A DNA stretch of 64,000 nt from Candidatus Lustribacter sp. (GCA_965277805.1 OZ255842.1:3648001-3712000); one strand, 5' to 3'. Counted from the stretch's first letter, positions 13,006 to 29,457 are shown. The notes: a model not told the origin generated them from the sequence alone. Translations and numbers: made by a program.

Positions 13006-13067
13006 GCGTCGGCTCGGGTTCGCCGAGGGGAGCGATAGCACCGTCCATGCGAACATAGGCCAACGCA

Positions 13068-13846: not shown

Positions 13847-14857
13847 CTAGCGCGAAGCGTACTGCGTCTTGTAGTACTCGCGGAATTCGCCGGACTTGAT
13901 CGGCCGCCACCAGGCTTCATTCGTGCGGTACCATTCCACCGTGTCGCGCAGCCCGCGTTCGAAATCGACGGTGGGCGTCCAGCCTAAGCGCGCGGCTTTC
14001 GAGGCATCGAGCGAATAGCGGCGGTCGTGTCCGGCGCGATCCGTCACGTGGCGCACGTGCGTGTCCCACGTGCGGCCGGTGGCCGCGAGCAAGACCTTCG
14101 TGATCTCGAGGTTCTCGCGGCTGTTGCCGCCGCCGAGGTTGTAGATCTCCCCGAGCGTGCCGTGCTCGAGCACGTGCAGGATGCCGCGCGCGTGATCGTC
14201 GACGTGCATCCAATCGCGGATCTGTTTGCCGTCACCGTAGACCGGCACCGGCGCGTCGTCGATCAGATTGGTCGCGAAGAGCGGTATCAGCTTTTCCGGA
14301 TATTGATACGGGCCGTACGTGTTGGAACCGCGCGTGATGAGGACGGGCGTATCGTAGGTCGTCGCGTACGCAAGGACTTGCAGGTCGCCGCCGGCTTTCG
14401 ATGCGGCGTAGGGCGAGCGCGGCCGGATCGGATCTTCTTCGGTCGAGCTGCCGCGCTCGATGTCGCCGTAGACTTCGTCGGTCGAAACTTGAAGGAAGCG
14501 CGCGATCTTCTGTTCGCGCACCGCTTCGAGCAGCACGTGCGTGCCGAGCACGTCCGTCTTGATGAACTGCTCGGGCGCGAGGATCGAGCGATCGACGTGC
14601 GACTCCGCGGCGAAATTCACGATCGCGGTTGCGCCGGTGCCGATTGCCTCACGCACCGCGCTCGCATCGCAGATGTCGCCGCGGACGAACCGATAGCGTG
14701 CGTCGCCGGCGACCTCGCGCACGTTCTCGGGGTTGGCCGCATAGGTCATCGCATCAAGCACGGTCACGTGAAGGCCGGGACGCTCGCGTACGATCATCCG
14801 GACGAACGCCGATCCGATGAAGCCGAGACCACCCGTGACAACCCAGTGCTGGTTCAC
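13847..14857 (-). CDS. rfbB: dTDP-glucose 4,6-dehydratase
   Basis: VTGGLGFIGS, FAAESHVDRSI, VSTDEVYG, SPYAASKA, QYPEKLIP and DRAGHDRRY motifs. Confidence 0.96.
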   Translation of the reverse strand: MNQHWVVTGGLGFIGSAFVRMIVRERPGLHVTVLDAMTYAANPENVREVAGDARYRFVRGDICDASAVREAIGTGATAIVNFAAESHVDRSILAPEQFIKTDVLGTHVLLEAVREQKIARFLQVSTDEVYGDIERGSSTEEDPIRPRSPYAASKAGGDLQVLAYATTYDTPVLITRGSNTYGPYQYPEKLIPLFATNLIDDAPVPVYGDGKQIRDWMHVDDHARGILHVLEHGTLGEIYNLGGGNSRENLEITKVLLAATGRTWDTHVRHVTDRAGHDRRYSLDASKAARLGWTPTVDFERGLRDTVEWYRTNEAWWRPIKSGEFREYYKTQYASR

Positions 14858-14942
14858 GTTAGCGGCCTGCGCGAACGGAGCATGCCGCTCCTTCCTTCAT
14901 GAGACGCGAGGGGCGGGATTCAAGGGACAAGAAACGCGGGGA

Positions 14943-16817
14943 GTGCACGCTAAATCGTGGATGTTCTACGCCGCGACGGCCATCCTCGCGTTTCTCGGCG
15001 CATTCTTCATCATGCACCTGTGGGACATGCATCTGAACGTCCCGCTCTACTTTGCCCGCGGCGGCGACGAGTTACCGACGCTGGTTTGGGTCAAAGCGAT
15101 GATGGACGACGGGTGGGTCAATACGATCACGCACCTCGGTGCACCAACCGCCCTTTCGACCGGCGATTTTCCGGTCACGGCGCTCGTCCATCTCGGCGTT
15201 CTCAAAATTCTGACGCTCATCGTGCACGACGTCGGAACCGCGATCAACCTGTATTTCATCGCGGGCTTCTCGCTGATTGCGATATCGAGCGCTTATGTCT
15301 TGCGACGCTTCGGCATCTCGTGGCCGGCGGCGATGATGGTTTCCGTCGTATACGCGCTGTTGCCGATGCGTTTCTATCGCAACGAAGCGCATCTTCCGTA
15401 CGGACAATACTTTCTCTATCCCATCCTTGCGCTCGCGACGCTTTGGATCTACCGGGGCGAACGGCTATTCGACGCGAGCAAGCGACGCCCAACCCGCGAC
15501 GGCTACATTTATCTCATCGGGCTCGTTGCCGTCGCGTGGGATAACCCGTTGCTCGCGGCCTTCGCGATTATGATCCTCGCGCTGGCGGGACTAGCATCGG
15601 CGATACGGACGCGCACGTGGAAAGGCGCGATGACCGCCGTAGCCGGCGTCGTGCTTCTCGTCGTTGCATTGGAAGCGAGCATGCTTCCGAACATACTCTA
15701 CGTCAAGCAGCACGGCAAGAACCCCGTCGCGATGGCCTACTCGGGAGAAGGCACCGAGCTTTACGCCTTGACGCTGCCCCAACTCGTGTTACCGATTCAG
15801 TCACATCGCATTCCGGCTCTTGCGCAGGTACGTGCTCGCTTCGATTCGGGCATACCGATGTTTTCGAACGAAAACAGCTCGGCCACGCTCGGGCTCCTGG
15901 CGACGCTCGGCTTCGTAGGATCGATTGTTGCATTTCTGCTGTTCCGGGCCAACGCGTTCGAGGCACTCTGGCCCGATCTCGCGCGGCTCAACATCGCCAC
16001 GTTTCTCTTGATCACCATTGGGTCAGTCGGCGCGCTGATCGGATTCTATTTCGAGCCCGACCTTCGCGGCTACAACCGGTACTCGCCGATGATCGGATTC
16101 CTATCGCTCGCGACCGTTGCAATCGCGCTCGACGCGATCCGGCGACGCTGGCCGGAAACGCGCGCTCGGGACGGCGCCTGGATCGCAGCGCTGCTCCTCA
16201 TCGGCGTGCTCGCGATCCTCGATCAAACCTCCGACGCGTTTGTCCCGGCATACGCAGCCGATCTTCAAGCCTACACCGGGGATGCGCACTATGCGGCGGT
16301 GCTCGAGAAGCACTTCGCCCCGAACGCCGCCCTCTATCAGATCCCATACGTGCCGTTCCCCGTCTGGCCCACCGTCGTGAACCTCGGGTCGTGGGAACAG
16401 ACGGCGCTCTATTTGCATTCGACCACCCTGCGGTACAGCTACGGTTCGACGAACGGACGCCCCAGCGGTGAGTGGCAAGAGTACGTTGCCGCCCAAGACC
16501 CGCGGCAGTTTCTCGAACAGATTATCCTCGGCGGCTTCGACGGCGTTCTCGTGTATCGTCGCGGCTATAAGGACAACGGCGCCGCGATCGAAAAAGACCT
16601 CGGCTCGCTGCTGCGCCAAACGCCGATCGTCCGCGACGACGGCACGATTGCAGCCTACGATATCAGCAAACTACAAGCAAGCTACGAAGCCCGCGCCGGC
16701 ACGGCGCTTGTAGATCACGTGCGGACAGAATTGCTGACGCCCAAAGTCGACTGGGATACGTCGCTGACAGCGGCGACGAAAATCGTCGACCAGCTGCTCG
16801 CGGAGACGTCCCGTTGA
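14943..16817 (+). CDS. Polytopic membrane protein, probable GT-C (YfhO-like) glycosyltransferase
   Basis: First TM followed by an acidic loop (GGDE), many TM helices and a soluble C-terminal domain; paralog of the next gene. GTG start at 14943 inferred. Confidence 0.6.
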   Translation: MHAKSWMFYAATAILAFLGAFFIMHLWDMHLNVPLYFARGGDELPTLVWVKAMMDDGWVNTITHLGAPTALSTGDFPVTALVHLGVLKILTLIVHDVGTAINLYFIAGFSLIAISSAYVLRRFGISWPAAMMVSVVYALLPMRFYRNEAHLPYGQYFLYPILALATLWIYRGERLFDASKRRPTRDGYIYLIGLVAVAWDNPLLAAFAIMILALAGLASAIRTRTWKGAMTAVAGVVLLVVALEASMLPNILYVKQHGKNPVAMAYSGEGTELYALTLPQLVLPIQSHRIPALAQVRARFDSGIPMFSNENSSATLGLLATLGFVGSIVAFLLFRANAFEALWPDLARLNIATFLLITIGSVGALIGFYFEPDLRGYNRYSPMIGFLSLATVAIALDAIRRRWPETRARDGAWIAALLLIGVLAILDQTSDAFVPAYAADLQAYTGDAHYAAVLEKHFAPNAALYQIPYVPFPVWPTVVNLGSWEQTALYLHSTTLRYSYGSTNGRPSGEWQEYVAAQDPRQFLEQIILGGFDGVLVYRRGYKDNGAAIEKDLGSLLRQTPIVRDDGTIAAYDISKLQASYEARAGTALVDHVRTELLTPKVDWDTSLTAATKIVDQLLAETSR

Positions 16818-19084
16818 GCAGAACTCGCGTCGGCCCCTACATTTGGAGCGCGCTCGTTGCGTTGATCGGCGCCGTCGTCGTCATGCACCTGTGGCACATG
16901 CGCGTCGGCATCCCGCTCTACTACAGCCGCGGCGGCGAAGAGCTGATGGTCCTTACGTGGACGAAGGCGATGCTCGACGGCGGATGGTACGGCACGATCG
17001 CGCACCTCGGCGCGCCGTTTGCGATGTCAACGGCCGACTATCCGCTCCCGGACCTGCTGCACACCCTGGTGCTGCGCGTCATCACCCTTGTGGTGCATCA
17101 CGCACCGGTTGCCGTGAACCTTTACTTCATCGCGGGCTTTCCGTTGATCGCACTGGCCGGCACCTACGCTCTGCGGCGTCTGGGCGTCTCGTCGGGCGCG
17201 GCCGTTGCGATGTCGGTCATCTACGCGCTGTTGCCGTTTCGCTTCATGCGCAACGAAGGGGCCCTGTTCGCCTCTCAGTACTACATCCTGCCGCTGCTGG
17301 TGCTCGCAGTTGTCTGGGTTCTGCGCGAACACGCGCTGTTCGATCCGGGCCGCCGCAGGCCGACGCGAGACGGCTACATCTTTCTCGTAAGCCTGCTCGC
17401 GCTCTCGTGGGATAACACCTACGATGCCGCCTTCGGCGTGATGCTTCTCGCCTTCGCGGCGGCGGCGTCGTATGCACGCACGCGCGCTTGGCGCGGCGCA
17501 GCGGCGGCGCTCGTGGGGATCATCGTGATCTTCGCCGGTGCCGAGATCGAACTTCTGCCGTCGACCATCTACCAGCTCCAGCACGGCAAGGATGCCGCCA
17601 TCGTCTCCCTAGCGCCGCAGACATCCGAGTATAACGCGTTGACGCTGGCGCAACTCGTCCTCCCGATCCAGAACCACCGCATCCCGAAACTGGCTCGCAT
17701 GCGGGCGAAGTTTGATTCGGGGCTTGTTGACTTTATCAACGAGAACTCCTCAGCCACGCTCGGAGTGGTGGGCGCGCTGGGCTTTCTCGGCACCTTGGCG
17801 GCGCTGCTGCTCGTGCGCACCGAGCGCGACGGCGATCTGTGGCCCGAGCTCTCGCGATTGAATCTAGCGATGTTTTTCATCGCGACCATCGGCGGGGTGG
17901 GGGCGCTGATCACGTACTATCTCGTTCCACAGCTGGATCTCTACAATCGCATCTCGCCGCTGATCGCCTTCGTTTCTCTGGCGGCGGTCGCGCTCGTTCT
18001 CGATACGATCCGGCGACGCCGGCTCGCGGAGTGGAACGGCGTGTGGGCGATGGGCCTCACGCTTTTGACGGCGGTTGCGATCTTCGATCAAACCTCAGCC
18101 ACCTACGTGCCGAACTATAACGCCGACATTCAAGCGTATAACGCTGATACCGGATTCGCGACAATGCTCGAAAGCCGCCTCGGGCCCAATGCGCAGGTGT
18201 ATCAGTTACCGCACGTCGCGTTCCCGAGCATCGCCCCAGTCGAGCGGCTCCAACCCTGGGACCAAACGGCGCTCTACCTGCAATCGCACACCCTGCACTA
18301 CAGCTTTGGGACGACCGTCGGGCGCAAAGACGACGATTGGCAACTCGCCACGAACGCGCTGCCCTTGCATGCATCGCTCATGGAACTCGTACTTGCCGGG
18401 TTCCAGGGCATCGTGGTCTACACAGCCGGCTACGCGGACAACGGGAACGCCGAGATCGGCGCGCTATCATCGCAGCTGGGAACCGACCCGGTCCTTCGCG
18501 ACGACCGCATGGCCGCGTTCTTCGACCTCAGCAAGCTGCACGCGCGCTACATCGCGGCCGTCGGAGCCGATAAGGCGGCCTCCGTACGCGCGACGATCAT
18601 TCACGCCGTACCCGGCGGCATCCAGCATCCGCCTGAGGACATTGCTATGGCAATGGGTACGGCCGGGCGATTACTCGACGCGGTGAGCACGCCGCCGGCG
18701 ACGGCAATCGACGTCACCTTCGCGGCGGGCTGCTACGCGCCGGAGCGAAACGCCACATCGGATTGGCATTGGTGCGGCAACTCAGCCCTCCTGACACTTC
18801 TGAACCATGGCCCGGCGCAACGCATCGTGCTGAAGTACACGTTGACAACCGGCGCGCCGGCGCAGGTGACGGCTGCCGCAAATGGGACGCGCGCAATACT
18901 CGAGGGTTCGCCGCAAGGAAGTTCCGTCAATGAAACACTCCTCGTTCCGCCCGGACGAACCGCCCTGCGGCTCACCACCAGCGCGCAGCCCATCGCGGCA
19001 CCCGCCGATCCGCGCCGTCTTACGATGCAAATTGCGAATTTACGGGTATTTCAAACACACGCAGGTAACGTAACACCGCCTTGA
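16814..19084 (+). CDS. Polytopic membrane protein, probable GT-C glycosyltransferase with an extra C-terminal beta domain
   Basis: Clear paralog of 14943-16817 (GGEE, QLVLPIQNHRIP, NENSSATLG, DQTS); added GCYAPE...WHWC...DPRRL domain. Confidence 0.6.
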   Translation: MSRTRVGPYIWSALVALIGAVVVMHLWHMRVGIPLYYSRGGEELMVLTWTKAMLDGGWYGTIAHLGAPFAMSTADYPLPDLLHTLVLRVITLVVHHAPVAVNLYFIAGFPLIALAGTYALRRLGVSSGAAVAMSVIYALLPFRFMRNEGALFASQYYILPLLVLAVVWVLREHALFDPGRRRPTRDGYIFLVSLLALSWDNTYDAAFGVMLLAFAAAASYARTRAWRGAAAALVGIIVIFAGAEIELLPSTIYQLQHGKDAAIVSLAPQTSEYNALTLAQLVLPIQNHRIPKLARMRAKFDSGLVDFINENSSATLGVVGALGFLGTLAALLLVRTERDGDLWPELSRLNLAMFFIATIGGVGALITYYLVPQLDLYNRISPLIAFVSLAAVALVLDTIRRRRLAEWNGVWAMGLTLLTAVAIFDQTSATYVPNYNADIQAYNADTGFATMLESRLGPNAQVYQLPHVAFPSIAPVERLQPWDQTALYLQSHTLHYSFGTTVGRKDDDWQLATNALPLHASLMELVLAGFQGIVVYTAGYADNGNAEIGALSSQLGTDPVLRDDRMAAFFDLSKLHARYIAAVGADKAASVRATIIHAVPGGIQHPPEDIAMAMGTAGRLLDAVSTPPATAIDVTFAAGCYAPERNATSDWHWCGNSALLTLLNHGPAQRIVLKYTLTTGAPAQVTAAANGTRAILEGSPQGSSVNETLLVPPGRTALRLTTSAQPIAAPADPRRLTMQIANLRVFQTHAGNVTPP

Positions 19085-19956
19085 AGATTTGCACCAATTG
19101 CAGCACTCGCTACGACGGGCCGAATTGGGACTGCCCGAATTGTTCGTTCAAACCCGATCGGTTGGCATCCCACATTCGCTTCGCACCGGAAGTCGCGACG
19201 GAGACGGCAGGCTTCGAGCCGGAATTCTTCGAGAACCTGTTCGCCCTCGAGGCAAGCAACTTTTGGTTTCGCGCCCGGAACGAACTCATTCTCTGGGCAA
19301 TGAAGGCCTACTTCAGCACGGCGCGATCGATGCTCGAAATCGGATGCGGAACGGGCTTCGTGCTCTCGGGAGTGGAGCGAGCGTTCCCGCAGCTGGTGCT
19401 TTCCGGAACCGAAGTGCTCGATCGCGGGCTGGAGCTGACCGCCAAACGCATCAAGTCCGCGACGCTCTATCAGATGGATGCGCGCTCCATACCCTTTGAG
19501 AATGAGTTCGACGTGATCGGCGCGTTCGACGTCATCGAGCACATCGTGGAAGATTCGCGCGTGCTGGCGGAGATGTACCGCGCCGTGAAACCCGGGGGCG
19601 GCATCCTCGTGACCGTACCGCAGCATCCCTGGCTCTGGAGCCAGGGCGACGTTCACGCTCACCACGAACGCCGGTATGTCGCCGCGGACTTCGCACGACA
19701 GGTGCGCACGGCCGGTTTCCGGATTTCGCGGATGACGTCGTTCGTGTCGCTCCTCTTGCCGCTCTTACTGATTTCACGGCGGCGAAACACGGGAGCGTCT
19801 TTCGATCCCCACGCCGAATTCAAAATCCCCGCCTATCAAAACGCGATCCTCGAATGGGCTCTGGGGATCGAACGCTCCCTGATCCAGGCAGGCGTCAATT
19901 TTCCCGCCGGCGGATCACTGCTCGTCATCGCTCACAAACCGGAGTCTGCCGGATGA
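19081..19956 (+). CDS. Class I SAM-dependent methyltransferase with an N-terminal Cys motif
   Basis: CTNC...CPNC, NFWFRARN, LEIGCGTG, FDVIEHI and HHERRY motifs; TTG start overlapping the previous stop. Confidence 0.88.
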   Translation: MKICTNCSTRYDGPNWDCPNCSFKPDRLASHIRFAPEVATETAGFEPEFFENLFALEASNFWFRARNELILWAMKAYFSTARSMLEIGCGTGFVLSGVERAFPQLVLSGTEVLDRGLELTAKRIKSATLYQMDARSIPFENEFDVIGAFDVIEHIVEDSRVLAEMYRAVKPGGGILVTVPQHPWLWSQGDVHAHHERRYVAADFARQVRTAGFRISRMTSFVSLLLPLLLISRRRNTGASFDPHAEFKIPAYQNAILEWALGIERSLIQAGVNFPAGGSLLVIAHKPESAG

Positions 19957-20681
19957 TCTCCATCGAACCAAACGTCGTCGACGCCGAACTCGAGAAGCGC
20001 GGCTACCTCATTATCAAAGATGCAGCGCTGACCGAGTTGTGCAGCGCCGCTCACGACGAATACTACCGGTGCTTTGAGGCGTCGACGCTACACGCGCCAC
20101 GCGACCGGTTCCACTATACCGACCTGATCAAGAATCCGTGGCGCAAACTGACGATCGGCTCCGGCAACGGGCTCGGCGAAGCGTACGCCCAGAATCTGCA
20201 GACGACGTATTTTCATTTCGACGATCCGAACTACCCGAGGCTCGGCTCGTTGTTCAAGATGATGACCGTCATGCGCAACAAGCTCATGGGCGTTTCCGAG
20301 TCGTTCGGTTCGGATCCCGATCACGATCGCTTTTGGGACGCTTGCCGCGTGCATCACTATCCGCGCGGCGGCGGTTTTATGGCCGTCCACCGCGATACGT
20401 ACTTCCCCCAGATCATCGACGCGCAGATCGGCAAGCCGTACTATCAGATCTGCGTGCTGCTCAGTCGCAAAGGCACGGACTTCGGGACGGGCGGCGGAAT
20501 TATCATCGATAACGACGACGCCAAGGTCGACCTCGAAACGGCGGCCGGCTTCGGCTCGCTCATCCTATTCGATGGCCGCGCGCGCCACGCCGTCGAGGAC
20601 GTCGATCTCGATACCATCATCGACTTCAATCGGGCCGACGGGCGGTTAGCTGCCTTCGTGAACCTCTACGCGGTCCGATAG
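19953..20681 (+). CDS. Putative 2OG-Fe(II) oxygenase-fold protein
   Basis: YPRGGGFMAVHRD (HxD), GGG, ILFDG..RHAV (distal His) and GRLAAF (Arg); ATGA overlap with the previous gene. Confidence 0.6.
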   Translation: MISIEPNVVDAELEKRGYLIIKDAALTELCSAAHDEYYRCFEASTLHAPRDRFHYTDLIKNPWRKLTIGSGNGLGEAYAQNLQTTYFHFDDPNYPRLGSLFKMMTVMRNKLMGVSESFGSDPDHDRFWDACRVHHYPRGGGFMAVHRDTYFPQIIDAQIGKPYYQICVLLSRKGTDFGTGGGIIIDNDDAKVDLETAAGFGSLILFDGRARHAVEDVDLDTIIDFNRADGRLAAFVNLYAVR

Positions 20682-21599
20682 CGGGCCGCCATAGACCTTG
20701 CGGACGACCGTGAGCGGACGCCGCTTCGTCTCCGAGAGAATGTTCGCGACATAGATGCCCTGAATGCCGAGAATGACCGTCGAGAGCGCGCCGAAAAACC
20801 AGATCGACACGATGATCGATGTGAAGCCGGTGACGGGAACACGTGCAAACGCGTAAAGCAGCACGAAGTACACGATCAGCGCCGCAGCAACGGCCGTCAG
20901 CGCGAGGCCGAGATAGAAGACCATGTAGAGCAGCTTGGTCGACGACGTCGTCAGGTGCTTGACGAAATACTGCACGCGCATGCGGAACGAGTAGGTCGAC
21001 GTCGAGCTCATATGCTTCGTCGCCGCGATGCCGACTTGCCGGAAGCCGGACGACGCCCACAGCTGCGAGATGAGGAACTCGCGATCGCGGTGCTCGAGCA
21101 GCGCGTCGACATAATCTCGCTTCATGAGCCTGGCCGTCATGATGTTGCGCGGAATCCGGTCGGTGCTGAGCTTATCGAGGAGCCAAAAGTAGACTTCGCC
21201 CGTGAACTGCGTCATGAAGCCGCCGCGCCGCTGGGGCTGAAACCCGTACACGACGTCGCAATCGCCTTCCATCAGACGAGCGTAAAAGATGCCGAGCAGT
21301 TCGGGATCTTCATCGAGATCGCTATCGAGCAGAAACACGAGGTCACCGCTCGCATGCGCGAGCCCCGTCATGAGCGCCTTATGGTGCCCGAAATTCCGCG
21401 AGAGGTCGACCACGACGACGCGGGGGTCCAGTTGCCGCAACGCGAGGGCGCGACCGAGACTGTCGTCGGGCGAGCCGTCGTTGACCATGATGAGCTCCAG
21501 CTCGTAGCCGAGGGGTTCGGCTGCCGCCACGGCGCGCAGGTAGAACTCATTGATCGTCCCGGCCGACCGGTACAGCGTCGTCACGATGGACAGCTTCAT
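20646..21599 (-). CDS. GT2 polyprenol-phosphate glycosyltransferase (GtrB/ArnC-like)
   Basis: VNDGSPD, LSRNFGHHKAL, DSDLDEDP, two C-terminal TM helices and ETKRRP. Confidence 0.9.
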   Translation of the reverse strand: MKLSIVTTLYRSAGTINEFYLRAVAAAEPLGYELELIMVNDGSPDDSLGRALALRQLDPRVVVVDLSRNFGHHKALMTGLAHASGDLVFLLDSDLDEDPELLGIFYARLMEGDCDVVYGFQPQRRGGFMTQFTGEVYFWLLDKLSTDRIPRNIMTARLMKRDYVDALLEHRDREFLISQLWASSGFRQVGIAATKHMSSTSTYSFRMRVQYFVKHLTTSSTKLLYMVFYLGLALTAVAAALIVYFVLLYAFARVPVTGFTSIIVSIWFFGALSTVILGIQGIYVANILSETKRRPLTVVRKVYGGPLSDRVEVHEGS

Positions 21600-22390
21600 G
21601 CGGCGTTGTTCCAGGGCGTCAGGCGAAGAAACTTCTCCAAGTTCGTTCGGCCGATTGCCTCCGTTTTCTTGTCATCGAGGCCGCCCGCGAGATCCTCAAA
21701 GCGCGCTCGCACGGCTGCGTGCCCGTAGTCGGGAAAATCCGCACCGATGCAGATCCGGCTCTCAAATGCCCGGAAGAGAAACTTCAAATCGAGATCGATC
21801 GAGCTTCCCTGGTATTTCATCATCGTGTGCGAGAGGTCGAGAAGCAGGTTCGGCGAGTGCCGAGCGAGCTGCGCATAGCGCATCAGTTCAACGTCGCCGC
21901 CGTGAACCAGCACCAGACGGCAATCGCCCGCGTCTTGCAGCGCCGCAACCAGATCGTAGAGGGGATCATGGCGCGGATACGCGTCGACCCCGGCGTGAAA
22001 GTACGTGCACAAGAAGACCACGAGATCACGCTCGGCTGCCGCGCGAAATGCGGGCGCCAGCGACGGATCGCGCAGATCAACTCCGGAGTTGCGCGGATGA
22101 ATCTTGATGCCGCGGAACCCGAGCGTGGCGATCGCGTCGAACTGCGCAGTCACGTCTGCAGCGCGCGGGTCGACGCCCGCGATCGGCACGAGTTCCGGAT
22201 ACGGGCGGCACATTGCCGCAAACTCGGCATGCGCGTAGCCCTCGATACCGGCCAGACCGACGGCACAAGCGCGTGCGAAACCATTGTCTCGCATCGACGC
22301 AACGAGCGTTTCGACCCTCGCATCGCGGTCACTGTTCGGCCAGCGGCCGGAGAGTGTCGGATGTGCCAGAGAGTCAAAGAGACCCGTCAT
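21596..22390 (-). CDS. Amidohydrolase_2 family protein
   Basis: GFRGIKIHP, LVLVHGG, PNLLLDLS and IGADFP motifs; the N-terminal DxHxH reads DSLAH. Confidence 0.75.
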   Translation of the reverse strand: MTGLFDSLAHPTLSGRWPNSDRDARVETLVASMRDNGFARACAVGLAGIEGYAHAEFAAMCRPYPELVPIAGVDPRAADVTAQFDAIATLGFRGIKIHPRNSGVDLRDPSLAPAFRAAAERDLVVFLCTYFHAGVDAYPRHDPLYDLVAALQDAGDCRLVLVHGGDVELMRYAQLARHSPNLLLDLSHTMMKYQGSSIDLDLKFLFRAFESRICIGADFPDYGHAAVRARFEDLAGGLDDKKTEAIGRTNLEKFLRLTPWNNAA

Positions 22391-23583
22391 CCGGGCAGAT
22401 CGGTTTTTCGCCGGACCCCGCTCGCGGCAAGGCTCTTGATCTTGCGCAAGGCTGCAATGAATCGATCCTCGGGTTCAAAGCCAAGCGAGGCGCGCACGAA
22501 CCGGTCCGTACTCGCGCCATACGCCGAGCCCGGAACAACAGAGATCTTATCGTTGATCAGGAGATCGATCGCAAAGTCGTCGGCACTGCCCGGGTAGTTC
22601 TCAATCGAGATGAAGTAGTAAAACGTTCCCGTACCGGCCATCTTGACGAGGCCGATCTCGTCCATGATGCCGGCGATCCGGAGACGCTGCTCGGCGAGAA
22701 GGCGCGCCTGCGGCAATGTCGCCGCCGTCAGCTCATCGAAATAGCGCGCGACATATTGCTGCAGAATCGTCGGCGCGCAGGTAATAATGTGCTGATTGAG
22801 CTTCAGGCATTGTTTGACGAAGGCCGAATCGGCAATGAGATAGCCGAGCCGCCAACCGGCGATGCCCATGCTCTTGGAGAGCGAGTTGACAACGATCGCG
22901 CCGTCTTTATCCGGGACGATGGACGCCAGCGACACGAACTCATCGGCGGAGAGAAAGTCGCTATACGCCTCATCCATCAGGAGATAAACACCGCGCTCGC
23001 GGCACTGCGCGAACACCGATGCAATTTCGCGAGCGCCGTAGACGCGGCCCGCCGGGTTGTTGGGATTGTTGAGGATGAGGAGTTTTGTCCGCGGCGTGAA
23101 CTGCTCGGCAATCCGTGCGATGTCGACGTCGTGCGGAATAAAGCGAGGCACGGCACCGACGATGCCGGCCTGCTCTTGATAGCTCACCCAGGCGGGCTCG
23201 GGGATCGCGACCTCATCGCCCGGCTCGAGAGCCGCGAGCATGACCATGAAGATCGCTACTTTTGATCCGGCGGTAACCAGGATCTCAGTCGCCGGATCGA
23301 CCTGCGCTCCGTAATGCGCGCGATAAAACTCCGCCAGTTTGGCGCGCAGTTCGGCGATACCACGGCTGTCCGAGTAGTTGCTGCCCTTGTCGAGGTCCAT
23401 GGCATCGAAGCTCGGCCAGTCCATCGAAAAGAACGTGTCGCCCAGCGAGAGGACCGTCAGGTCTTCTCCCCTCGCCTTCAAATCGGCCACGATTTGATTC
23501 ATGCGAATCGACGCGGACTCGGCGATGTTGCGGACGCGCCGGCTCAACTGCATCGGCGGGTGCGCCGCGGTCGTTTCGCTCAC
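22387..23583 (-). CDS. PLP-dependent aminotransferase, class I/II
   Basis: VTAGSK, NNPNNPAG, DEAY, NSLSKSMGIAGWRLGY and VPGSAYG motifs. Confidence 0.92.
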   Translation of the reverse strand: MSETTAAHPPMQLSRRVRNIAESASIRMNQIVADLKARGEDLTVLSLGDTFFSMDWPSFDAMDLDKGSNYSDSRGIAELRAKLAEFYRAHYGAQVDPATEILVTAGSKVAIFMVMLAALEPGDEVAIPEPAWVSYQEQAGIVGAVPRFIPHDVDIARIAEQFTPRTKLLILNNPNNPAGRVYGAREIASVFAQCRERGVYLLMDEAYSDFLSADEFVSLASIVPDKDGAIVVNSLSKSMGIAGWRLGYLIADSAFVKQCLKLNQHIITCAPTILQQYVARYFDELTAATLPQARLLAEQRLRIAGIMDEIGLVKMAGTGTFYYFISIENYPGSADDFAIDLLINDKISVVPGSAYGASTDRFVRASLGFEPEDRFIAALRKIKSLAASGVRRKTDLPG

Positions 23584-24590
23584 GCTTCGACGTGTTGAAC
23601 GAGGCCCGAAGCGACGCGCTCCATCGTCTCGACGCTCGGATCGAGCCGATCCACGTCGCCCAAGGCAATGATCAGGCGCTTCGGGTCGACCGGAATCCGC
23701 TGCACCACGCCTTGGAGACGCGAGAGGAAGCTCGAGTGGAATCCGCCGATGCCGATGGCGACATCGAGTGAGGTGGAGCCGCCGCCGTCCGCCATGAGGG
23801 GACGAACGAACTCTTCACCGGCAGCGAGCACGCCGTAAATGTCGATGCCGGTCGGGACATCGAGCTTGTTGCAGATCGCAACGAGCGCTTCGGTTTGCGC
23901 GTTGCCGCCGCCGCGCCCGATACCCTGAAGCGTACAATCAACGATCGCCGCACCCGCGCGGTAGGCAGCCAAGCTGTTTGCATTGGCCATCAAGAGATTG
24001 TTGTGCCCGTGGAAGCCGACCGGGATCGACACGGCTGCGCATGTTTCACGAACGTACGCCGACACTTCATCGGGCAGCATGCAGCCGGCCGAATCGACCA
24101 CCGCGACAACGTCGGCACCCCATTGCTCGACCACGCGGACCGTCTCGGCATATTCCTCGGGTGAGAGCAAATACGATTTCATCGCGTTGTACGAAACGTA
24201 CAAGCCGAGGCTCTTCGCGTACTCGATGAAGGGCCGCGCCTGAGCAACTTCGGTCACGTTCGTGCCGATGCGCAGGAAGCCGAGTCCATGCTCACGTGCG
24301 GCCTTGATGTCTTCTTCACGGCCGATGCCGGGAATGATGAATGCACCGAACCGGGCCGTCGTGAGAACGCTGGTCGCCGCATCGCAGTATTCGATATCCG
24401 TCGCCGCCGCAACGCCGCGTTGCGGGTGCGATCCATTGAGGCCGACACCATGGCCGATCTCGATGAATTGAACGCCGGCATTTTCCAACGCCGAGCAGAT
24501 GGCGCGCGTATGCTGCGTCGTCCATTGGTAGTCGATCGCGTAGCTACCGTCGCGGATCGTGCAATCGAGTAAGGTGAGTGGCTTATTCAT
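23580..24590 (-). CDS. 4-hydroxy-2-oxovalerate aldolase-like enzyme (DRE-TIM metallolyase)
   Basis: DCTIRDGSY, IEIGHGVGL, IPGIG, VVDSAG, GFHGHNN, GRGGGN and HSSFL motifs, DmpG/MhpE-like. Confidence 0.88.
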   Translation of the reverse strand: MNKPLTLLDCTIRDGSYAIDYQWTTQHTRAICSALENAGVQFIEIGHGVGLNGSHPQRGVAAATDIEYCDAATSVLTTARFGAFIIPGIGREEDIKAAREHGLGFLRIGTNVTEVAQARPFIEYAKSLGLYVSYNAMKSYLLSPEEYAETVRVVEQWGADVVAVVDSAGCMLPDEVSAYVRETCAAVSIPVGFHGHNNLLMANANSLAAYRAGAAIVDCTLQGIGRGGGNAQTEALVAICNKLDVPTGIDIYGVLAAGEEFVRPLMADGGGSTSLDVAIGIGGFHSSFLSRLQGVVQRIPVDPKRLIIALGDVDRLDPSVETMERVASGLVQHVEA

Positions 24591-24594
24591 ATAC

Positions 24595-25365
24595 CTATCG
24601 CGCTACTGCGAGATCGACGGCCTCGGCGACCCGAGTGTTGGTGGCAAGCTTATTGACCGCAAAGATGGCCATCCATCGGCCTTCGAATGAGAGCCAATCG
24701 GCGTCTTTCTTCGTATCGATGTTTGCGACGCCGTGCGCCAGCTTCGGGCTGAAGAGGACGACGTCGCCCGGGCTCGTGTGCTTCTCGATCATCTCGATCT
24801 CGCCGTCGGCGCCCCGGACGAAGATGCCGCCTTCGTCGAAATCGCGGCCCAGCTCCGACATCATCAACAACGGCACGACGGCCTGGTGCGGACCGACCGG
24901 ATCGATGTGTTCGTTCATCCCGCCGATGCCCTTCGGATAAAACTGGAACGACAAGCGCGCGATGCAGTCGTCATAGGCCTCATAGCCGAGATAGGCACCG
25001 GGTTCGGCACAGGAGAGCAGATTGCGCAACTCAAAGATGAGCCGCAGCCGGCTGAACAGGCCAAAGACGTCGTCGTTCCACGGGAAGAACGAAAATTGAT
25101 GGAAGCACGCTTTTACATACGAGCGCTCGTCCCAGTGGCTGATGCGATGAAAATTTGAACAGTTCGGGAGGATCGCTTGCCAGCCGGGAAGCGAGCCCCG
25201 GCCGACCTGGCTCAGGTATGCGATCCACGCGGCAATTTCTTTGCGCGAAACGACGTTCCGGATGATGCATATGCGCTCGTCATCGAGCTGCTTCAAGAGC
25301 TCCTGACGGCACGCAGAATCTCGGACCAGATCATTCAACGGAGCTGTTTCGAAAATCTGGGTCAT
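24595..25365 (-). CDS. Putative 2OG-Fe(II) oxygenase-fold protein
   Basis: YPKGIGGMNEHID (HxD), EGG, GDVVLF..LAHGV and GRWMAIF; same motif order as 19953-20681. Confidence 0.6.
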   Translation of the reverse strand: MTQIFETAPLNDLVRDSACRQELLKQLDDERICIIRNVVSRKEIAAWIAYLSQVGRGSLPGWQAILPNCSNFHRISHWDERSYVKACFHQFSFFPWNDDVFGLFSRLRLIFELRNLLSCAEPGAYLGYEAYDDCIARLSFQFYPKGIGGMNEHIDPVGPHQAVVPLLMMSELGRDFDEGGIFVRGADGEIEMIEKHTSPGDVVLFSPKLAHGVANIDTKKDADWLSFEGRWMAIFAVNKLATNTRVAEAVDLAVAR

Positions 25366-26039
25366 TCGGAGTCGACCTCGCCGGTAGGGATGAACCCAAG
25401 GTATTCGGGGAAAATTGTGTATTTCTTGTCGAAATCGTCCTGCAAGTCGACAAAGATCGTGAACTCGAACGGCATATAGTCCTGCCTGAGCACCACACGC
25501 TTGGAGTAGCTGTACGCCAGGTCCAAGACGGCGCAGGGGTCGGCGTTGTACAAGGACTCGTCCCGGAAGTCCACGCGATCGGTGATGAAGTTGGCGGCGA
25601 AGCCCCGCCGTGCCTTAGCGCGGAAGAGGTCGAAGGTTTCGCGGATAAAGCCCCAGTTGTCGGCCATGCGGAAGTTATAGAGGCCCGACGCCACGATGAC
25701 GTCGTAGCCTTGCGGCAATCCATCCGTCGAAATATCGAGCGCGCGCAGGTCGGCCTCGGGATAGCGCTCGCGGCCGGCTTCGATCAGGCGCGGGTTGAGA
25801 TCGATCCCGTGATAGCGCACATCCGCGCGACCGCTCTGCCGGCAGTAGTCGTACATGTCGCCGAAGCCGCAGCCGAAATCGAGCAAGTCGGCGTTCGCAA
25901 GATTCCAATACGACAGTAATATATCATAGCGGAGGATATGCTGACGCTTCGTCCAGCCGAGCGTGCGCGCGTCATGGCCGTACTGCTTGAGCCGCGCGTT
26001 GTAGCGTTCGAGCGTGGAGCGTTTCTCGTCGTCGTTCAC
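25362..26039 (-). CDS. Class I SAM-dependent methyltransferase
   Basis: LLDFGCGFGD, YHGIDL, DVIVASG and GFAANF motifs. Confidence 0.88.
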   Translation of the reverse strand: MNDDEKRSTLERYNARLKQYGHDARTLGWTKRQHILRYDILLSYWNLANADLLDFGCGFGDMYDYCRQSGRADVRYHGIDLNPRLIEAGRERYPEADLRALDISTDGLPQGYDVIVASGLYNFRMADNWGFIRETFDLFRAKARRGFAANFITDRVDFRDESLYNADPCAVLDLAYSYSKRVVLRQDYMPFEFTIFVDLQDDFDKKYTIFPEYLGFIPTGEVDSE

Positions 26040-26983
26040 TCCGCAGGTTGTCCGTCGACGCGTTCGGCATACCCGATCCCGGCGCGGCCGTATCCGTTAC
26101 CGGCGTACAGGAGATAGGTCGCGTGCGGGAGCCGCATCAGGCGCGGGTAACATTGCATTTCGCTGTCGAAGTCGCTGCGGGCGAGTTCGAACGGGGCGGG
26201 CAAGCGGGTCCACGTATTCGGCGGTCCCTCGATCGAAGCGAACAGGCGATAACGATGTCCGCGCGCGGTGAAATACATGTAGCGCGTGCCGTCGACGGTA
26301 TCGATGTCGGGCGCGCCGAGCGCGTACTCATCGGGCGGGATAAGATCGACGATCACCGTGCCCGGTCGCTCCCAATGAATGCCGTCCCGCGAGTGCGCTT
26401 CACGAATATGATAGTAGTGGCGCGGCCCATCGGGACGGCGTTCCCAGCGCAAAAAGTTCGTATAGAACATGCGCCAGCCATCAGGCACCCGCTCCACGCA
26501 AATGGATCCGTTGCCCAGCGGTTCTTCATCGGTCATCGGCAACAGCGGCGCGCGCGTGGCGCGCCGGAACGTCTTGCCGCCGTCCGAGCTGATTGCTAAG
26601 CCGATCTGATTGCGAAACGGGATATCGCCGCCGAGCCGATTCCAGCCGACATAGTACATCCAAAGCTCGCCGTCGCGTTCGACGATCCAGGGATAGCTCA
26701 CGCCGTCCATGTCGAAGCATCCCGGCTCGCCTAAATCAAAGACCGGCTCTCGCGTGATTCCCGTCAGTTGCGGCGTGTCGCCCCACTTGAAGGTTGCGAT
26801 GCCGATTCTGCTCCGCACCGACTCATCTCGGCCCGTGAGAAAAAGCCGAACCGTTCCGTCGTCGGAAACGAGCGGGAAGAATGCCCCGAGGCCGCCGCCC
26901 ATCCAGCCGATCGAAAAGTCAGGCCGGAACACGACCCCGCGCGTTGCCCACGCAATCATGGTTTGCCGGTCATGCAGTGGCAA
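26036..26983 (-). CDS. Five-bladed beta-propeller glycosidase-like protein (GH32/43/130-like fold)
   Basis: LGEPGCFD, WMYYVGW, IGLAISSDGGKTF, SRDGIHW, MQCYP and YAGNGYG motifs; alternative start at ATG 26959. Confidence 0.7.
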   Translation of the reverse strand: MPLHDRQTMIAWATRGVVFRPDFSIGWMGGGLGAFFPLVSDDGTVRLFLTGRDESVRSRIGIATFKWGDTPQLTGITREPVFDLGEPGCFDMDGVSYPWIVERDGELWMYYVGWNRLGGDIPFRNQIGLAISSDGGKTFRRATRAPLLPMTDEEPLGNGSICVERVPDGWRMFYTNFLRWERRPDGPRHYYHIREAHSRDGIHWERPGTVIVDLIPPDEYALGAPDIDTVDGTRYMYFTARGHRYRLFASIEGPPNTWTRLPAPFELARSDFDSEMQCYPRLMRLPHATYLLYAGNGYGRAGIGYAERVDGQPAE

Positions 26984-28202
26984 GGAACGTCAGGGGTTGG
27001 CAAAAGGCTCCATCGGTCGTTTCGAGTCGGATCTGCGAGGCAATGTTCTGTGCGCGCGCAAGCGCCGCCGGCCCATCTTCCGCGACCACGCCGACGTAAC
27101 CGCTGCGTTGCGACGTCCACCTGATCGGCTCGATGATGCCGTCGGACGGTAGCCAGTAGTCGAAGTCGATCACGCCGTCGCTTTCGGGCAGGCCTTCGGG
27201 TACATGCATCGTGCGCGCCGTGCAGGGGGGGAAAGCGAGAAACATGAGCACGGCACCTCGGTGTGCCGGCGAGATGTCAGCGTTGTCGGAGACGTTGCAC
27301 GCGAGACGAGCGGCTTCAACCATCGGATGATAACCACCGGTGTGCGCCGCAAGATCTGGCGTGATGCTGCCGCCGCAACGGGCGGCTAGTTCGATCGGCT
27401 TCGGCCCCTCGCTCGTCAGGGTGAATTCGATGTGCCCCGGACCCTTCGAAATACCGAGCAGCGCGGTGGCTTTATTGCACATCCGCTCGATGGCAGCGAC
27501 CGTTTTGGGATCTGTCTCGCCCGGATAGCCGATCGCCAAGTCGACACGATAGGGCGGTTCCGACTTTATCTTCCGTCCGAGGGCGAGAACGTGCGTCTTT
27601 CCATCCCTCACGAGCAGTTCGGCACTGAATTGCGGACCCGAAAGTGCCTGCTCGACGAGAATGTCGGAGCCTGGCAATGCATGCTCCTGCGCGAATGCGA
27701 AGGCGCCCGCGATATCGGCCTTATCGGAAACGAGGCTCACGCCGCGGGAACCACCGTGACTCATATCCGGCTTGATGATGACGGGCAAGCCGCCCACGGA
27801 GTCGACAGCCCGCATCGCCTCGTCTGCGGATGCAACGGTTTCGTACGGCACCAAGAGTTCGGAATCATCTGCCCAGTGGCGGCGCTGTGCGAGCTTGCTA
27901 ATCGTGCGATCGATAATCGCGCGTGGCAGACCGGGAAGCTTAAAGCGCGGCTGCAGATCGGCGGCACTGAGCATCGCGACTTCATTGATACCGATGATGC
28001 CGTCGACGCCGCCCATGTCGCGAATGGCCGCGTCGAGCGCGTCGACGTCGGCAGGCGCGATTTCGAGTCCGATGTTCGCCTCGGCTAGCGCATACTGCCG
28101 CGGCAGCTTATCTGCGACGGCTACCTCAAAACCGGCAGCACGCAACGCCTTGATCGACCCGATCGTGGAGCGATTGCCCCCGATCATCAATACGCGCGGC
28201 AC
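26970..28202 (-). CDS. ATP-grasp domain ligase
   Basis: PVIIKPD..GGSRGV, LVEQALSGPQFSAE, HIEF and IELAARCGG motifs. Confidence 0.88.
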   Translation of the reverse strand: MPRVLMIGGNRSTIGSIKALRAAGFEVAVADKLPRQYALAEANIGLEIAPADVDALDAAIRDMGGVDGIIGINEVAMLSAADLQPRFKLPGLPRAIIDRTISKLAQRRHWADDSELLVPYETVASADEAMRAVDSVGGLPVIIKPDMSHGGSRGVSLVSDKADIAGAFAFAQEHALPGSDILVEQALSGPQFSAELLVRDGKTHVLALGRKIKSEPPYRVDLAIGYPGETDPKTVAAIERMCNKATALLGISKGPGHIEFTLTSEGPKPIELAARCGGSITPDLAAHTGGYHPMVEAARLACNVSDNADISPAHRGAVLMFLAFPPCTARTMHVPEGLPESDGVIDFDYWLPSDGIIEPIRWTSQRSGYVGVVAEDGPAALARAQNIASQIRLETTDGAFCQPLTFLATA

Positions 28203-28210
28203 GTTTGTGC

Positions 28211-29368
28211 CTACGCTCTAATCGCCGGCGAACCGGCCGAAAACGCGGTAACCGCTTGGATAACGCGCTCCTGCTCTTCGGCAGTCATCGTATTGTACAG
28301 CGGCAGCCGGATCAGACGATCGCTGCTCGATTCGGTTATGGGAAATTGTCCGTTGTGATAGCCGAGCTTCGCGCCATATTCCGACAGATGGAGGGGGACG
28401 TAGTGAAACACCGCGCCGATGTTCAAGCGCGCGAGATAGGCGATCAGCGCATCGCGGTCCTCAGTGGTCGGCAGCAACATGTAATAGAGGTGGTACGGCT
28501 GCGTGCAGTACTCGGGAACGGTCGGCTGTTGCACGCCGGAGCGCGAGCACCATTCGGCGAGTTCGCGCTGGTAGCGATCCCAGATCACTCCCCGGCGGGC
28601 TTGTATCTCGTCGGCCTTCTCTAGTTGCCCAAACAGAAATGCCGCCAGCAAATCGCTTCCAAGATATGAGGAACCGGGCTCGACCCAGCTATACTTGTCG
28701 ACGAGGCCTCTAAAGAAACGGCTCCGGTTCGTGCCCTTTTCGCGCACGATCTCCGCCCGCTCCACAAAGTTCGGATCGTTGACGATGAGCGCCCCGCCCT
28801 CACCGCAGACGATATTTTTGGTCTCGTGAAAGCTTTGGGTCGCGAAGGTCCCGAATGAGCCCAGCGGCCGGCCACGATACGCCCCAAAAAGTCCGTGGGC
28901 GTTATCCTCGACGATGTGCAATCCGTGCCGCGCCGCGATTTCGCTGATCTGATCCATCTCGCAGCTGACGCCGGCGTAGTGCACGATAGCGATCGCGCGC
29001 GTTCGCGGCGTTATCGCCGCCTCGATTAGGCGTTCGTCGATGTTCAGGGTGTCCGGACGAACGTCCACAAAAATCGGGCGGGCTCCCCGCAGGACGAACG
29101 CGTTCGCGGTCGACACGAACGTGAAGGACGGCATGATCACTTCGTCGCCTGGCTCCAAATCCAGCAGAAGCGCGCTCATATCGAGGGCGTGCGTACAGGA
29201 CGTGGTGAAGAGCGCCTTGAGCCCGCCGGTGGCACGTTCGAGCAGTTCGCTTGCCCGCTTCGTATAATGGCCGTCACCCGACAGGTGAGCGCGAGCGATG
29301 GCGTCGGTCATATAACCGACCTCGTCGCCCATGAGCACAGGGCGGTTGAAGGGGACTCGGTCGCTCAC
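28211..29368 (-). CDS. wecE: dTDP-4-amino-4,6-dideoxygalactose transaminase
   Basis: VPFNRP, SGDG, TTSCTHAL, MPSFTFVSTANAF, SFHETKN, GEGGAL, EKGTNRSRF and AVFHYVPLH motifs. Confidence 0.93.
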   Translation of the reverse strand: MSDRVPFNRPVLMGDEVGYMTDAIARAHLSGDGHYTKRASELLERATGGLKALFTTSCTHALDMSALLLDLEPGDEVIMPSFTFVSTANAFVLRGARPIFVDVRPDTLNIDERLIEAAITPRTRAIAIVHYAGVSCEMDQISEIAARHGLHIVEDNAHGLFGAYRGRPLGSFGTFATQSFHETKNIVCGEGGALIVNDPNFVERAEIVREKGTNRSRFFRGLVDKYSWVEPGSSYLGSDLLAAFLFGQLEKADEIQARRGVIWDRYQRELAEWCSRSGVQQPTVPEYCTQPYHLYYMLLPTTEDRDALIAYLARLNIGAVFHYVPLHLSEYGAKLGYHNGQFPITESSSDRLIRLPLYNTMTAEEQERVIQAVTAFSAGSPAIRA

Positions 29369-29457
29369 GCCTGTAGCTTTGCCTCCAGGATACGGGCAAA
29401 CCCTCCCTCGCCGTGGTCTAGGTTCGCATAACCGCTAGCTCGAAACGCGGCACGTAT

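Follow-up and report, generated by a model that had tools for sequence, protein, structure and literature searches.

A candidate glycan cassette of Candidatus Lustribacter that may join an aldolase-derived acid to a dTDP-4-amino-4,6-dideoxyhexose for lipid-carrier delivery

The enterobacterial common antigen (ECA) route of Escherichia coli makes dTDP-Fuc4NAc (dTDP, deoxythymidine diphosphate; Fuc4N, 4-amino-4,6-dideoxygalactose) through RmlA, RmlB, WecE and WecD, and the Arn pathway runs in the order ArnB, ArnA, ArnC, ArnD, ArnE/F, ArnT. Here we analyse a 64,000-nucleotide stretch of Candidatus Lustribacter sp. (GCA_965277805.1 OZ255842.1:3648001-3712000; the window), in which positions 14,943 to 29,368 hold a gene cassette that shares RmlA-like, RmlB and WecE proteins with the ECA route but lacks a WecD-type GNAT or other acetyl- or formyltransferase (51 open reading frames, ORFs, scanned) and has an ATP-grasp ligase gene following wecE instead. 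Like the Arn and the GtrB/CsbB plus GT-C (YfhO) systems, it is proposed to combine an N-acylated 4-amino sugar with a hairpin family 2 glycosyltransferase (GT2) and large polytopic proteins; it would differ from Arn in using a dTDP-6-deoxyhexose donor and an acyl group that is installed by ATP-grasp rather than formyl, and it differs from the GtrB/CsbB plus GT-C systems in that its polytopic proteins match no GT-C family above cutoff. We propose, as roughly an even prospect, that an aldolase-derived, tailored acid is ligated by the ATP-grasp enzyme to a dTDP-4-amino-4,6-dideoxyhexose and that an ArnC/GtrB-like GT2 loads the product onto polyprenyl phosphate. The cassette is best filed as a variant within the known N-acylated amino sugars and ArnC/GtrB-type lipid-carrier decoration; what is new in it are three uncharacterised protein families (oxygenase-like, an amidohydrolase subfamily and a GH130-like propeller) and an aldolase subfamily with a diagnostic residue swap.

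An ATP-grasp gene of family PF13535 also stands beside an FdtB-like dTDP-sugar aminotransferase gene in the Clostridioides difficile type B flagellin locus (CDR20291_0244-0247), where it is reported to be required for a terminal peptidylamido sugar, which the ATP-grasp mutant loses (PMC5207246). Unlike the cassette, that locus has FemAB-like and ornithine-cyclodeaminase-like genes, a 3-amino sugar, a flagellin target and cytoplasmic glycosyltransferases, and it contains none of the cassette's aldolase, oxygenase, amidohydrolase and GH130-like genes. The cassette aldolase has the same fold and family as DmpG/BphI (1nvm, 3.8e-53), but it carries a Tyr/His swap, has no DmpF/BphJ partner and lies in a glycan rather than an aromatic-catabolism context. 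In nikkomycin synthesis, the aldolase-like NikB takes part in building the acid, and NikK acts on the nucleoside part, not on the amino acid. The ATP-grasp enzymes NikS and PolG of nikkomycin and polyoxin synthesis are reported to couple a non-proteinogenic acid with the amino group of a nucleoside that derives from a sugar (PMC11641026). An earlier note on this DNA had likened the cassette's aldolase, aminotransferase and ATP-grasp enzyme to a nikkomycin trio: NikS-type coupling is indeed documented, but the trio is only an analogy, the likeness being functional only and the Nik and Pol pathways belonging to Streptomyces secondary metabolism with a free antibiotic as product.

To our knowledge, only structures, not genes, are known for most of the elaborate N-acyl groups of bacterial amino sugars. 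Such groups occur on 4-amino-4,6-dideoxyglucose (Qui4N), on Fuc4N and on the corresponding 3-amino sugars Qui3N and Fuc3N, and they include 5-oxoprolyl groups, hydroxylated and methylated, in Vibrio and Plesiomonas (PMC10609480; bioRxiv 10.1101/050328). Mycobacterium marinum lipooligosaccharide (LOS) IV carries a pyrrolidone-substituted 4-amino-4,6-dideoxygalactose, and its synthesis is reported to fail in a wecE mutant (PMC12507525; PMC7821131). By analogy, elaborate hydroxylated, methylated acyl groups could be the product class that the cassette's aldolase, two methyltransferases and two oxygenases make. In a literature search with most subscription journals outside its coverage, we found no paper assigning genes to 5-oxoprolyl-type or pyrrolidone N-acyl groups, none tying an ATP-grasp enzyme plus a DmpG-like aldolase to glycans, none on ATP-grasp with viosamine and none on DUF6311; no characterised pathway matched the cassette.

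The cassette and the two precursor-supply genes beside it are as follows (SAM, S-adenosylmethionine; 2OG, 2-oxoglutarate; PLP, pyridoxal phosphate; LAL, L-amino acid ligase; AspAT, aspartate aminotransferase).

12280..13068, minus strand: RmlA-like glucose-1-phosphate thymidylyltransferase, precursor supply (PF00483, 3.6e-59)
13847..14857, minus strand: RmlB, dTDP-glucose 4,6-dehydratase, predicted to make the 4-keto substrate of WecE (TIGR01181, 436.9 bits, cutoff 365.1)
14943 (or 14817)..16817, plus strand: polytopic paralog 1, candidate extracytoplasmic transferase (no Pfam or NCBIfam family)
16814..19084, plus strand: polytopic paralog 2, candidate extracytoplasmic transferase (YfhO, E 0.002, sub-threshold)
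19081..19956, plus strand: MT1, class I SAM methyltransferase (PF08241, 3.2e-14)
19953..20681, plus strand: Oxy2, second 2OG/Fe(II)-oxygenase-like protein (PhyH and 2OG-FeII_Oxy_3, E 0.002-0.003, sub-threshold)
20646..21599, minus strand: GT2, candidate polyprenyl-phosphate glycosyltransferase (PF00535, 2.4e-22)
21596..22390, minus strand: Amidohydro_2-family protein (PF04909, 3.1e-15)
22387..23583, minus strand: class I (AspAT-like) PLP aminotransferase (PF00155, 4.8e-55)
23580..24590, minus strand: DmpG/BphI-like pyruvate aldolase with swapped catalytic dyad (PF00682, 3.4e-40)
24595..25365, minus strand: 2OG/Fe(II)-oxygenase-like protein of an unnamed family, 256 aa (weak cupin match, E 0.0073)
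25362..26039, minus strand: MT2, class I SAM methyltransferase (PF08242, 1.7e-9)
26036..26983, minus strand: GH130-like five-bladed propeller protein, 315 aa (family profile against 7fip)
26970..28202, minus strand: LAL-type ATP-grasp carboxylate-amine ligase (PF13535, 1.7e-14; LAL_C2, 1.1e-6)
28211..29368, minus strand: WecE, dTDP-4-keto-6-deoxyglucose 4-aminotransferase (PF01041, 2.8e-92)

Genes were called from an ORF map together with Pfam and NCBIfam scans of the window ORFs, and the calls agree with the earlier note on which genes are present, on their order and on their tight coupling. The minus strand carries nine genes from 29368 down to 20646, with wecE first and the GT2 gene last; by ORF coordinates, neighbours overlap by 4 or 14 nt or else lie 4-8 nt apart, wecE being spaced 8 nt from the ATP-grasp gene and the remaining operon overlaps measuring 4-14 nt. 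The four plus-strand genes encode the two polytopic paralogs, MT1 and Oxy2, and the convergent operons share 36 nt at their 3' ends. The ORF of paralog 1 opens at 14817, and a start at the in-frame GTG at 14943 would keep it clear of rmlB; the likely start of Oxy2 is the ATG at 19953, which overlaps the MT1 stop codon. When the window is compared with its nearest relative (L001, from a metagenome-assembled genome, MAG, labelled Candidatus Eremiobacteraeota), the ratio of nonsynonymous to synonymous substitution (dN/dS) is 0.008-0.19 in all 14 genes compared, which denotes purifying selection and from which we conclude that the unnamed ORFs are real genes.

WecE scores above both of its equivalog cutoffs (NF008687, 558 bits against 375; TIGR02379, 516.9 bits against 434.85), and the RmlA-like ORF is short (262 aa) and scores 256.8 bits with TIGR01207, below the cutoff of 360.65 (RfbA). 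The claim that the sugar is dTDP-Fuc4N holds in so far as rmlA, rmlB and WecE point to a supply of dTDP-4-amino-4,6-dideoxyhexose, but it does not settle Fuc4N against Qui4N, as the two models passed by WecE name different C4 epimers (4,6-dideoxygalactose and 4,6-dideoxy-D-glucose). The absence of a recognisable acetyl- or formyltransferase, also claimed before, was borne out: none of the 51 scanned ORFs matches hexapeptide, GNAT or formyltransferase families, and the WecE product is therefore left without a conventional capping enzyme. The ligase, whose gene follows wecE in translational coupling, matches PF13535 with 54.2 bits (cutoff 27) and falls marginally below threshold for the LAL C-terminal domain PF18603 (29.2 against 29.4); among solved structures it is closest to BL00235, an L-amino acid ligase (3vot, 4.4e-14). 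The genomic context of the ligase argues for a sugar amine as its probable substrate. As a separate observation, a capsule-type locus on a Parabacteroides distasonis plasmid (L064, 6630-12213) has two LAL-like ATP-grasp genes flanking a phosphoglycosyltransferase gene, followed by a DegT gene and with no aldolase gene, and pairs of ATP-grasp and sugar aminotransferase genes may be widespread in Bacteroidales capsule loci.

The association of ligase and aldolase recurs far beyond this genome. Alignment of ligase homologues yielded 62 loci, with one genome per species, which were searched by local tblastn with 24 window proteins; 59 with a ligase match covering at least 60% were counted, and L029, L035 and L060 were excluded. 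At distances of up to 10 kb from the ligase gene, an aldolase gene is found in 43 of the 59 loci (40 within 3 kb) and a DegT-type aminotransferase gene in 44, followed by genes for an MT2-like methyltransferase (32), an RmlB-like short-chain dehydrogenase/reductase (SDR; 32), an ArnC-like GT2 (25), an Amidohydro_2 protein (15), a class I aminotransferase (7), the propeller (6) and the oxygenase-like protein (6). By our estimate, chance alone would place a gene of the HMGL family 3 kb or less from a given gene in far fewer than 1% of genomes. Among the 16 loci without an aldolase gene, three are cut by a contig end and eight have ligases with no more than 25-27% identity. Across the loci with an aldolase gene there are 11 phylum-level labels, and one locus is from a haloarchaeon (MAG labels as given in the records); many of the Acidobacteriota loci are close kin and not independent counts. 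Ligase and aldolase genes beside those for DegT-type sugar aminotransferases thus recur in 43 of the 59 loci, which answers the synteny search that the earlier note had suggested. The module's carriers include soil Acidobacteriota, Bacteroidota, Gemmatimonadota, Alphaproteobacteria, candidate phyla and one haloarchaeon, with cultured strains of Roseomonas and Pseudoroseomonas among them.

Within this distribution the window belongs to a well-marked group. In a quick maximum-likelihood tree of 50 ligases, built from the window and 49 loci after removal of 13 whose coverage fell short of 85%, the window, L001, L002, L003, L014, L019 and L033 form a seven-row clade with an SH-aLRT support of 100. 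Precisely these loci have, in addition, genes for the propeller and the oxygenase-like protein. To the ligase and aldolase this clade adds the GH130-like propeller, 2OG-oxygenase-like and Amidohydro_2 proteins, usually beside a true WecE. L001 has the gene order of the window at 92-100% protein identity, and L003 reads rmlB-rmlA-wecE-aldolase-ligase-propeller-MT-oxygenase-amidohydrolase-Oxy2. When the Pseudoroseomonas plasmid locus is counted with the clade, WecE is present in six of the eight loci; it is 95% identical in L001 and is named rffA by RefSeq in L063, and the NF008687 cutoff is passed by the WecE proteins of the window and of three others of these loci (L003, L014 and L033), and also by that of L017, which is not among the eight; none of nine DegT proteins from four distant loci passes a curated cutoff. 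On pL11-D, a complete plasmid of a cultured Pseudoroseomonas cervicalis strain, rffA/WecE is divergent from an aldolase-propeller-amidohydrolase-oxygenase-ligase row, whose genes RefSeq names only as hypothetical, amidohydrolase or ATP-grasp.

On the observed family-level gene identities, operon coupling, purifying selection and synteny we build a scheme whose every chemical step, order, acyl group and acceptor are conjectural. RmlA and RmlB would yield dTDP-4-keto-6-deoxyglucose, which WecE would aminate to dTDP-4-amino-4,6-dideoxyhexose. The DmpG-like class II aldolase would join pyruvate and an aldehyde into a 4-hydroxy-2-oxo acid, which the class I aminotransferase, in this lineage, would convert into a gamma-hydroxy amino acid, and MT2, perhaps MT1, and the two 2OG-oxygenase-like proteins would tailor the acid. 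The LAL-type ATP-grasp enzyme would then activate the carboxylate as an acyl phosphate and form an amide on the free 4-amino group of the sugar. The Amidohydro_2 protein and the GH130-like propeller may act on the acyl-sugar, our guesses being lactone or lactam chemistry and sugar-nucleotide binding or transfer. The ArnC/GtrB-like GT2 would move the acylated sugar onto polyprenyl phosphate, and after flipping, the two polytopic paralogs would attach it to the surface glycan of the neighbouring Wzm/Wzt-type locus. We entertain more tentatively a wider proposal, which we hold possible but doubtful, that the cassette belongs to an unrecognised multi-phylum route of surface-glycan decoration in which a dedicated family of swapped-dyad aldolases builds a non-proteinogenic gamma-hydroxy acid, a LAL-type ligase joins it to a nucleotide amino sugar and clade enzymes (two oxygenases, two or three methyltransferases, the amidohydrolase and the GH130-like protein) elaborate the acyl group before export on polyprenyl phosphate; this might be the missing route to the hydroxylated, methylated 5-oxoprolyl-type groups of O-antigens and mycobacterial LOS.

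The aldolase is set apart from its characterised relatives by two residues. It scores above the subfamily model NF006049 (300.6 bits, cutoff 229) and below the 4-hydroxy-2-oxovalerate aldolase equivalog TIGR03217 (270.7 against 286). In alignment with DmpG (1nvm) it keeps Arg17, Asp18, His200 and His202, with His21 replaced by Tyr and Tyr291 by His; in the DmpG/BphI enzymes these positions comprise the metal ligands and the catalytic set Arg17/His21/Tyr291. When the window protein was aligned with 43 locus aldolases, the Tyr/His swap appeared in all 42 full-length rows, two N-terminally truncated rows agreed where readable, and the Pseudoroseomonas aldolase also carries it. Judged by these alignments, the swapped-dyad aldolases form a separate subfamily that goes with glycan loci. 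A domain of about 385 aa is joined to the aldolase or comes after it in many loci, and in those of the Acidobacteriota type it is a conserved C-terminal fusion (for example L004:7736-9928), with homologous stretches in about 30 loci; this domain is absent from the window and has no Pfam or NCBIfam match, one distant member showing faint NAD-binding-type matches. In the Bacteroidota loci the aldolase gene is followed by one for a class I aminotransferase, and the presence of one or the other of these partners after the aldolase suggests that the 2-oxo group of its product is usually processed further.

The class I aminotransferase of the window scores 222.8 bits with archaeal AspAT and 213 bits with GntC, both below cutoff. 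GntC is a PLP cyclodehydratase that acts on a gamma-hydroxy amino acid, and its score nearly equals that of AspAT; the window enzyme might, on these scores, perform gamma-substitution chemistry instead of plain transamination. It is found only in the window, in L001 and, as a distant and independent occurrence, in six Bacteroidota loci. An amino-acid-type acyl group formed by way of this aminotransferase, which the earlier note had named as one of two options, is not supported for the family at large: the gene is present in two of the eight clade loci (the window and L001), and because it is absent from the other six, the acyl group need not be an amino acid. The window aldolase is closer to the Acidobacteriota type (46-48% identity) than to the aldolases of L002 and L003 (37-38%), which together with the narrow distribution of the aminotransferase suggests that the aldolase-aminotransferase pair was swapped in.

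The remaining tailoring proteins belong largely to unnamed families. The 315-aa protein has no Pfam match alone, but 20 of 36 sampled members of its family (2214 representatives) match PF04041 (best 1e-10) and the family profile matches the solved GH130 phosphorylase 7fip (4.1e-16) over part of its length, so that its former description as a beta-propeller is probably right and can be sharpened to GH130-like. We considered and dropped a bacterial or plant-type glutaminyl cyclase, which would fit a 5-oxoprolyl product, as the profile points to propellers of the GH130/GH43/GH32 type. Homologues with 32-33% identity, annotated 'glycosylase', lie on plasmids of Rhizobium leguminosarum (L066, 7097-13052) and Tateyamaria (L065, 7171-12219), in both of which the order is DegT, WbqC family, GH130-like glycosylase, hypothetical, GNAT, methyltransferase and glycosyltransferase; that the propeller family sits beside sugar aminotransferases even where there is no ligase argues for action at the level of the amino sugar. 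Among the 217 homologues of the 256-aa protein, none is named and none carries a Pfam domain, and H153, D155, H211 and R230 are invariant in 32 sequences; leads from the Atlas are Fe2OG/PF09859 clusters. Oxy2, which also occurs in L001, L002 and L003, is a distant paralog of the 256-aa protein (BLASTP, 29% over 100 aa; hhalign probability 96.6%). The invariant H/D/H/R residues and the kinship with Oxy2 are compatible with the earlier assignment of the 256-aa protein as 2OG-oxygenase-like, for which the matches themselves stay below the Pfam cutoff, and we regard the label as reasonable but provisional. MT1 also adjoins the module in L001 and L002. In the amidohydrolase family H98, H163 and D218 are invariant, and the best solved relative of its profile is the uncharacterised BB4693 (3irs, 3.1e-18), with no other good match.

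As to delivery, the GT2 can be aligned from end to end with PgfS (residues 1-301) and ArnC (residues 2-302), and its hydrophobic C-terminal segments at 230-282 form the hairpin typical of polyprenyl-phosphate glycosyltransferases; its dN/dS against L001 is 0.008. Paralogs 1 and 2 are 50% identical over 590 aa. Paralog 1 has about ten hydrophobic segments, and paralog 2 has about nine, followed by a soluble C-terminal half, with a dN/dS of 0.19. Acidic residues at 42 and 75, in the first loop, are kept in 24 of 26 paralog homologues; together with the many hydrophobic segments and the soluble C-terminal part they match the layout of GT-C proteins, of which none of these traits is specific. In Acidobacteriota-type loci the module is followed by genes for an ArnC-like GT2, an LPG_synthase_TM protein, an SDR, a DegT protein and a GT87 (GT-C) protein, with LPG_synthase_TM homologues in 22 loci and GT87 homologues in 17; in L026 a gene for a small EamA/TMEM234-like protein comes after that for the GT2. 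The proposed scheme of a GtrB-like GT2 acting with polytopic transferases gains from this recurrence in other lineages of an ArnC/GtrB-like GT2 followed by polytopic proteins: the logic of a GT2 that loads a lipid carrier, followed by a polytopic transferase, appears to recur with non-homologous parts.

Several results weigh against the proposed acylation and lipid-carrier delivery. The aldolase lacks the His21/Tyr291 arrangement of DmpG, and its reaction may differ from 4-hydroxy-2-oxovalerate chemistry; with the class I aminotransferase missing from six of the eight clade loci, 'amino acid' may be the wrong term for the family. The GT2 is far below the cutoffs for ArnC (99.7 against 529 bits) and PgfS (132.2 against 500), and it stands beside the module in only four of the eight clade loci and 25 of the 59 overall. 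Since it is also absent from the Pseudoroseomonas plasmid locus, lipid-carrier delivery is not obligatory to the module. The two polytopic proteins are related, as claimed, but the GT-C label given to them is not established: it derives from a sub-threshold YfhO match of paralog 2 (17 bits against a cutoff of 28.5), a Pfam scan of the 26 homologues gave weak matches to YfhO in three and to Wzy_C in two, and an hhalign comparison between the paralog family and a GT87 protein of L005, verified with Pfam, found no relation (probability 0.2%). No flippase candidate was seen in the window. The window also encodes two nucleotide-sugar dehydrogenases, which provide uronic acids whose carboxylates could be the ligase substrate instead.

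This last point leads to the main rival, in which the amide has the reverse polarity: the ligase would activate the C6 carboxylate of a uronic acid, as a residue or a nucleotide sugar, and amidate it with the amine of a custom amino acid from the aldolase and aminotransferase. The C-terminal ATP-grasp domain of Campylobacter Cj1438 offers a precedent, being reported to form an amide from the C6 carboxylate of glucuronic acid (GlcA) with serinol phosphate or ethanolamine phosphate (PMC11800379), and several distant loci contain WbpB/WbpE/WbpD-like genes for sugars of the uronic-acid type, L045 with an Asn-synthase-type amidotransferase. However, the domain of Cj1438 is named TupA-like and the window ligase is LAL-type (PF13535 plus LAL_C2); the ligase gene is coupled to wecE, and those for the dehydrogenases lie 12 kb and 27 kb away. 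Reverse polarity would moreover require an amine, although six of the eight clade loci have no amino-acid aminotransferase, and it would leave the WecE amine uncapped. We consider it improbable.

Alternatively, the aldolase might add a pyruvate unit to a sugar-derived carbonyl and so lengthen or branch the sugar, with the ligase and the tailoring enzymes acting on a higher-carbon sugar acid. The swapped dyad and the missed equivalog cutoff leave room for a different substrate, no DmpF-type acylating aldehyde dehydrogenase that would supply an aldehyde was found among the 51 scanned ORFs, and the GH130-like propeller family travels with sugar aminotransferases; but the domain of about 385 aa or the class I aminotransferase that follows the aldolase in many loci fits the handling of a small 2-oxo acid, nothing in the analysis points to a sugar aldehyde, and we rate sugar extension as very unlikely. 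Least probable of all is that the product of the aldolase, aminotransferase, tailoring enzymes and ligase is a free small compound, for instance an antimetabolite resembling a dipeptide, and that their genes lie in a glycan locus by chance: among solved structures the ligase comes nearest to L-amino acid ligases (3vot), it has a weak NCBIfam match to the dapdiamide synthase DdaF and no glycosyltransferase gene adjoins the module in the Pseudoroseomonas plasmid locus, but the operon runs from wecE to the GT2 gene with 4-nt overlaps, 44 of the 59 loci have a DegT-type sugar aminotransferase gene no more than 10 kb away, WecE is present even with the minimal Pseudoroseomonas set, and no exporter or resistance gene of antimetabolite type was seen within the operon.

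N-acyl groups on bacterial amino sugars shape antigenicity and recognition by phages and the immune system, and the cassette provides a concrete, testable gene set, with cultured Roseomonas and Pseudoroseomonas carriers that permit genetics. If acylation of the nucleotide sugar by the ligase is correct, ATP-grasp chemistry would extend to nucleotide amino sugars in glycan synthesis, and a dTDP-6-deoxyhexose branch would be added to ArnC/GtrB-type lipid-carrier decoration.

The whole window, judged by its gene families, is one large surface-glycan region, in keeping with the delivery to a surface glycan that had been proposed for the cassette product: it contains rml genes, a Wzm/Wzt ABC exporter, GT4 enzymes, a Wzy_C protein and a phosphoglycosyltransferase. 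Further features are listed here.

2918-4813: gmd and an SDR gene (family scans)
within 6980-14857: rmlD, which passes its equivalog cutoff
29458..30057, plus strand: MT3, class I SAM methyltransferase and possible cassette member, divergent from wecE (PF13649, 9.3e-16)
40631-42058: nucleotide-sugar dehydrogenase, 12 kb from wecE/ligase
55135-56706: second nucleotide-sugar dehydrogenase, 27 kb from wecE/ligase

MT3 adjoins WecE also in L001 (96% identity) and L017 (33%). No rmlC (3,5-epimerase) gene was seen among the window ORFs scanned, despite the presence of rmlD, rmlA-like and rmlB genes, and no homologue of ArnD, ArnE/F or GtrA was seen in the window. Rfam and tRNA scans of the whole window found nothing, and promoter-like and terminator-like sites at 13500-31000 were no more frequent than in shuffled sequence. 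Directly upstream of the Wzt/Wzm genes, 42055-45438 is a 1127-aa ORF with no hydrophobic segments and no Pfam or NCBIfam match. Between 30045 and 38733, where GC content falls to 52-56% against 62-67% in the flanks, lie four large polytopic ORFs (572, 624, 737 and 518 aa) with 11-14 hydrophobic segments and no Pfam or NCBIfam family, of which the 572-aa and 737-aa ORFs are paralogs (43% identical). The SDR at 31843-33006 scores 332.7 bits with the UDP-sulfoquinovose synthase model, below the cutoff of 575, which hints that a sulfo-sugar, or a 6-modified sugar related to it, may be made by this glycan region. Identity to L001 is highest in mid-cassette (GT2 100%; aldolase, aminotransferase and propeller 98-99%) and lower at the flanks (membrane paralog 2, 85%; 572-aa ORF, 76%; 624-aa ORF, 69%), a gradient over 14817-34960 that would be consistent with recombination, or with more rapid change, near the borders of the glycan locus.

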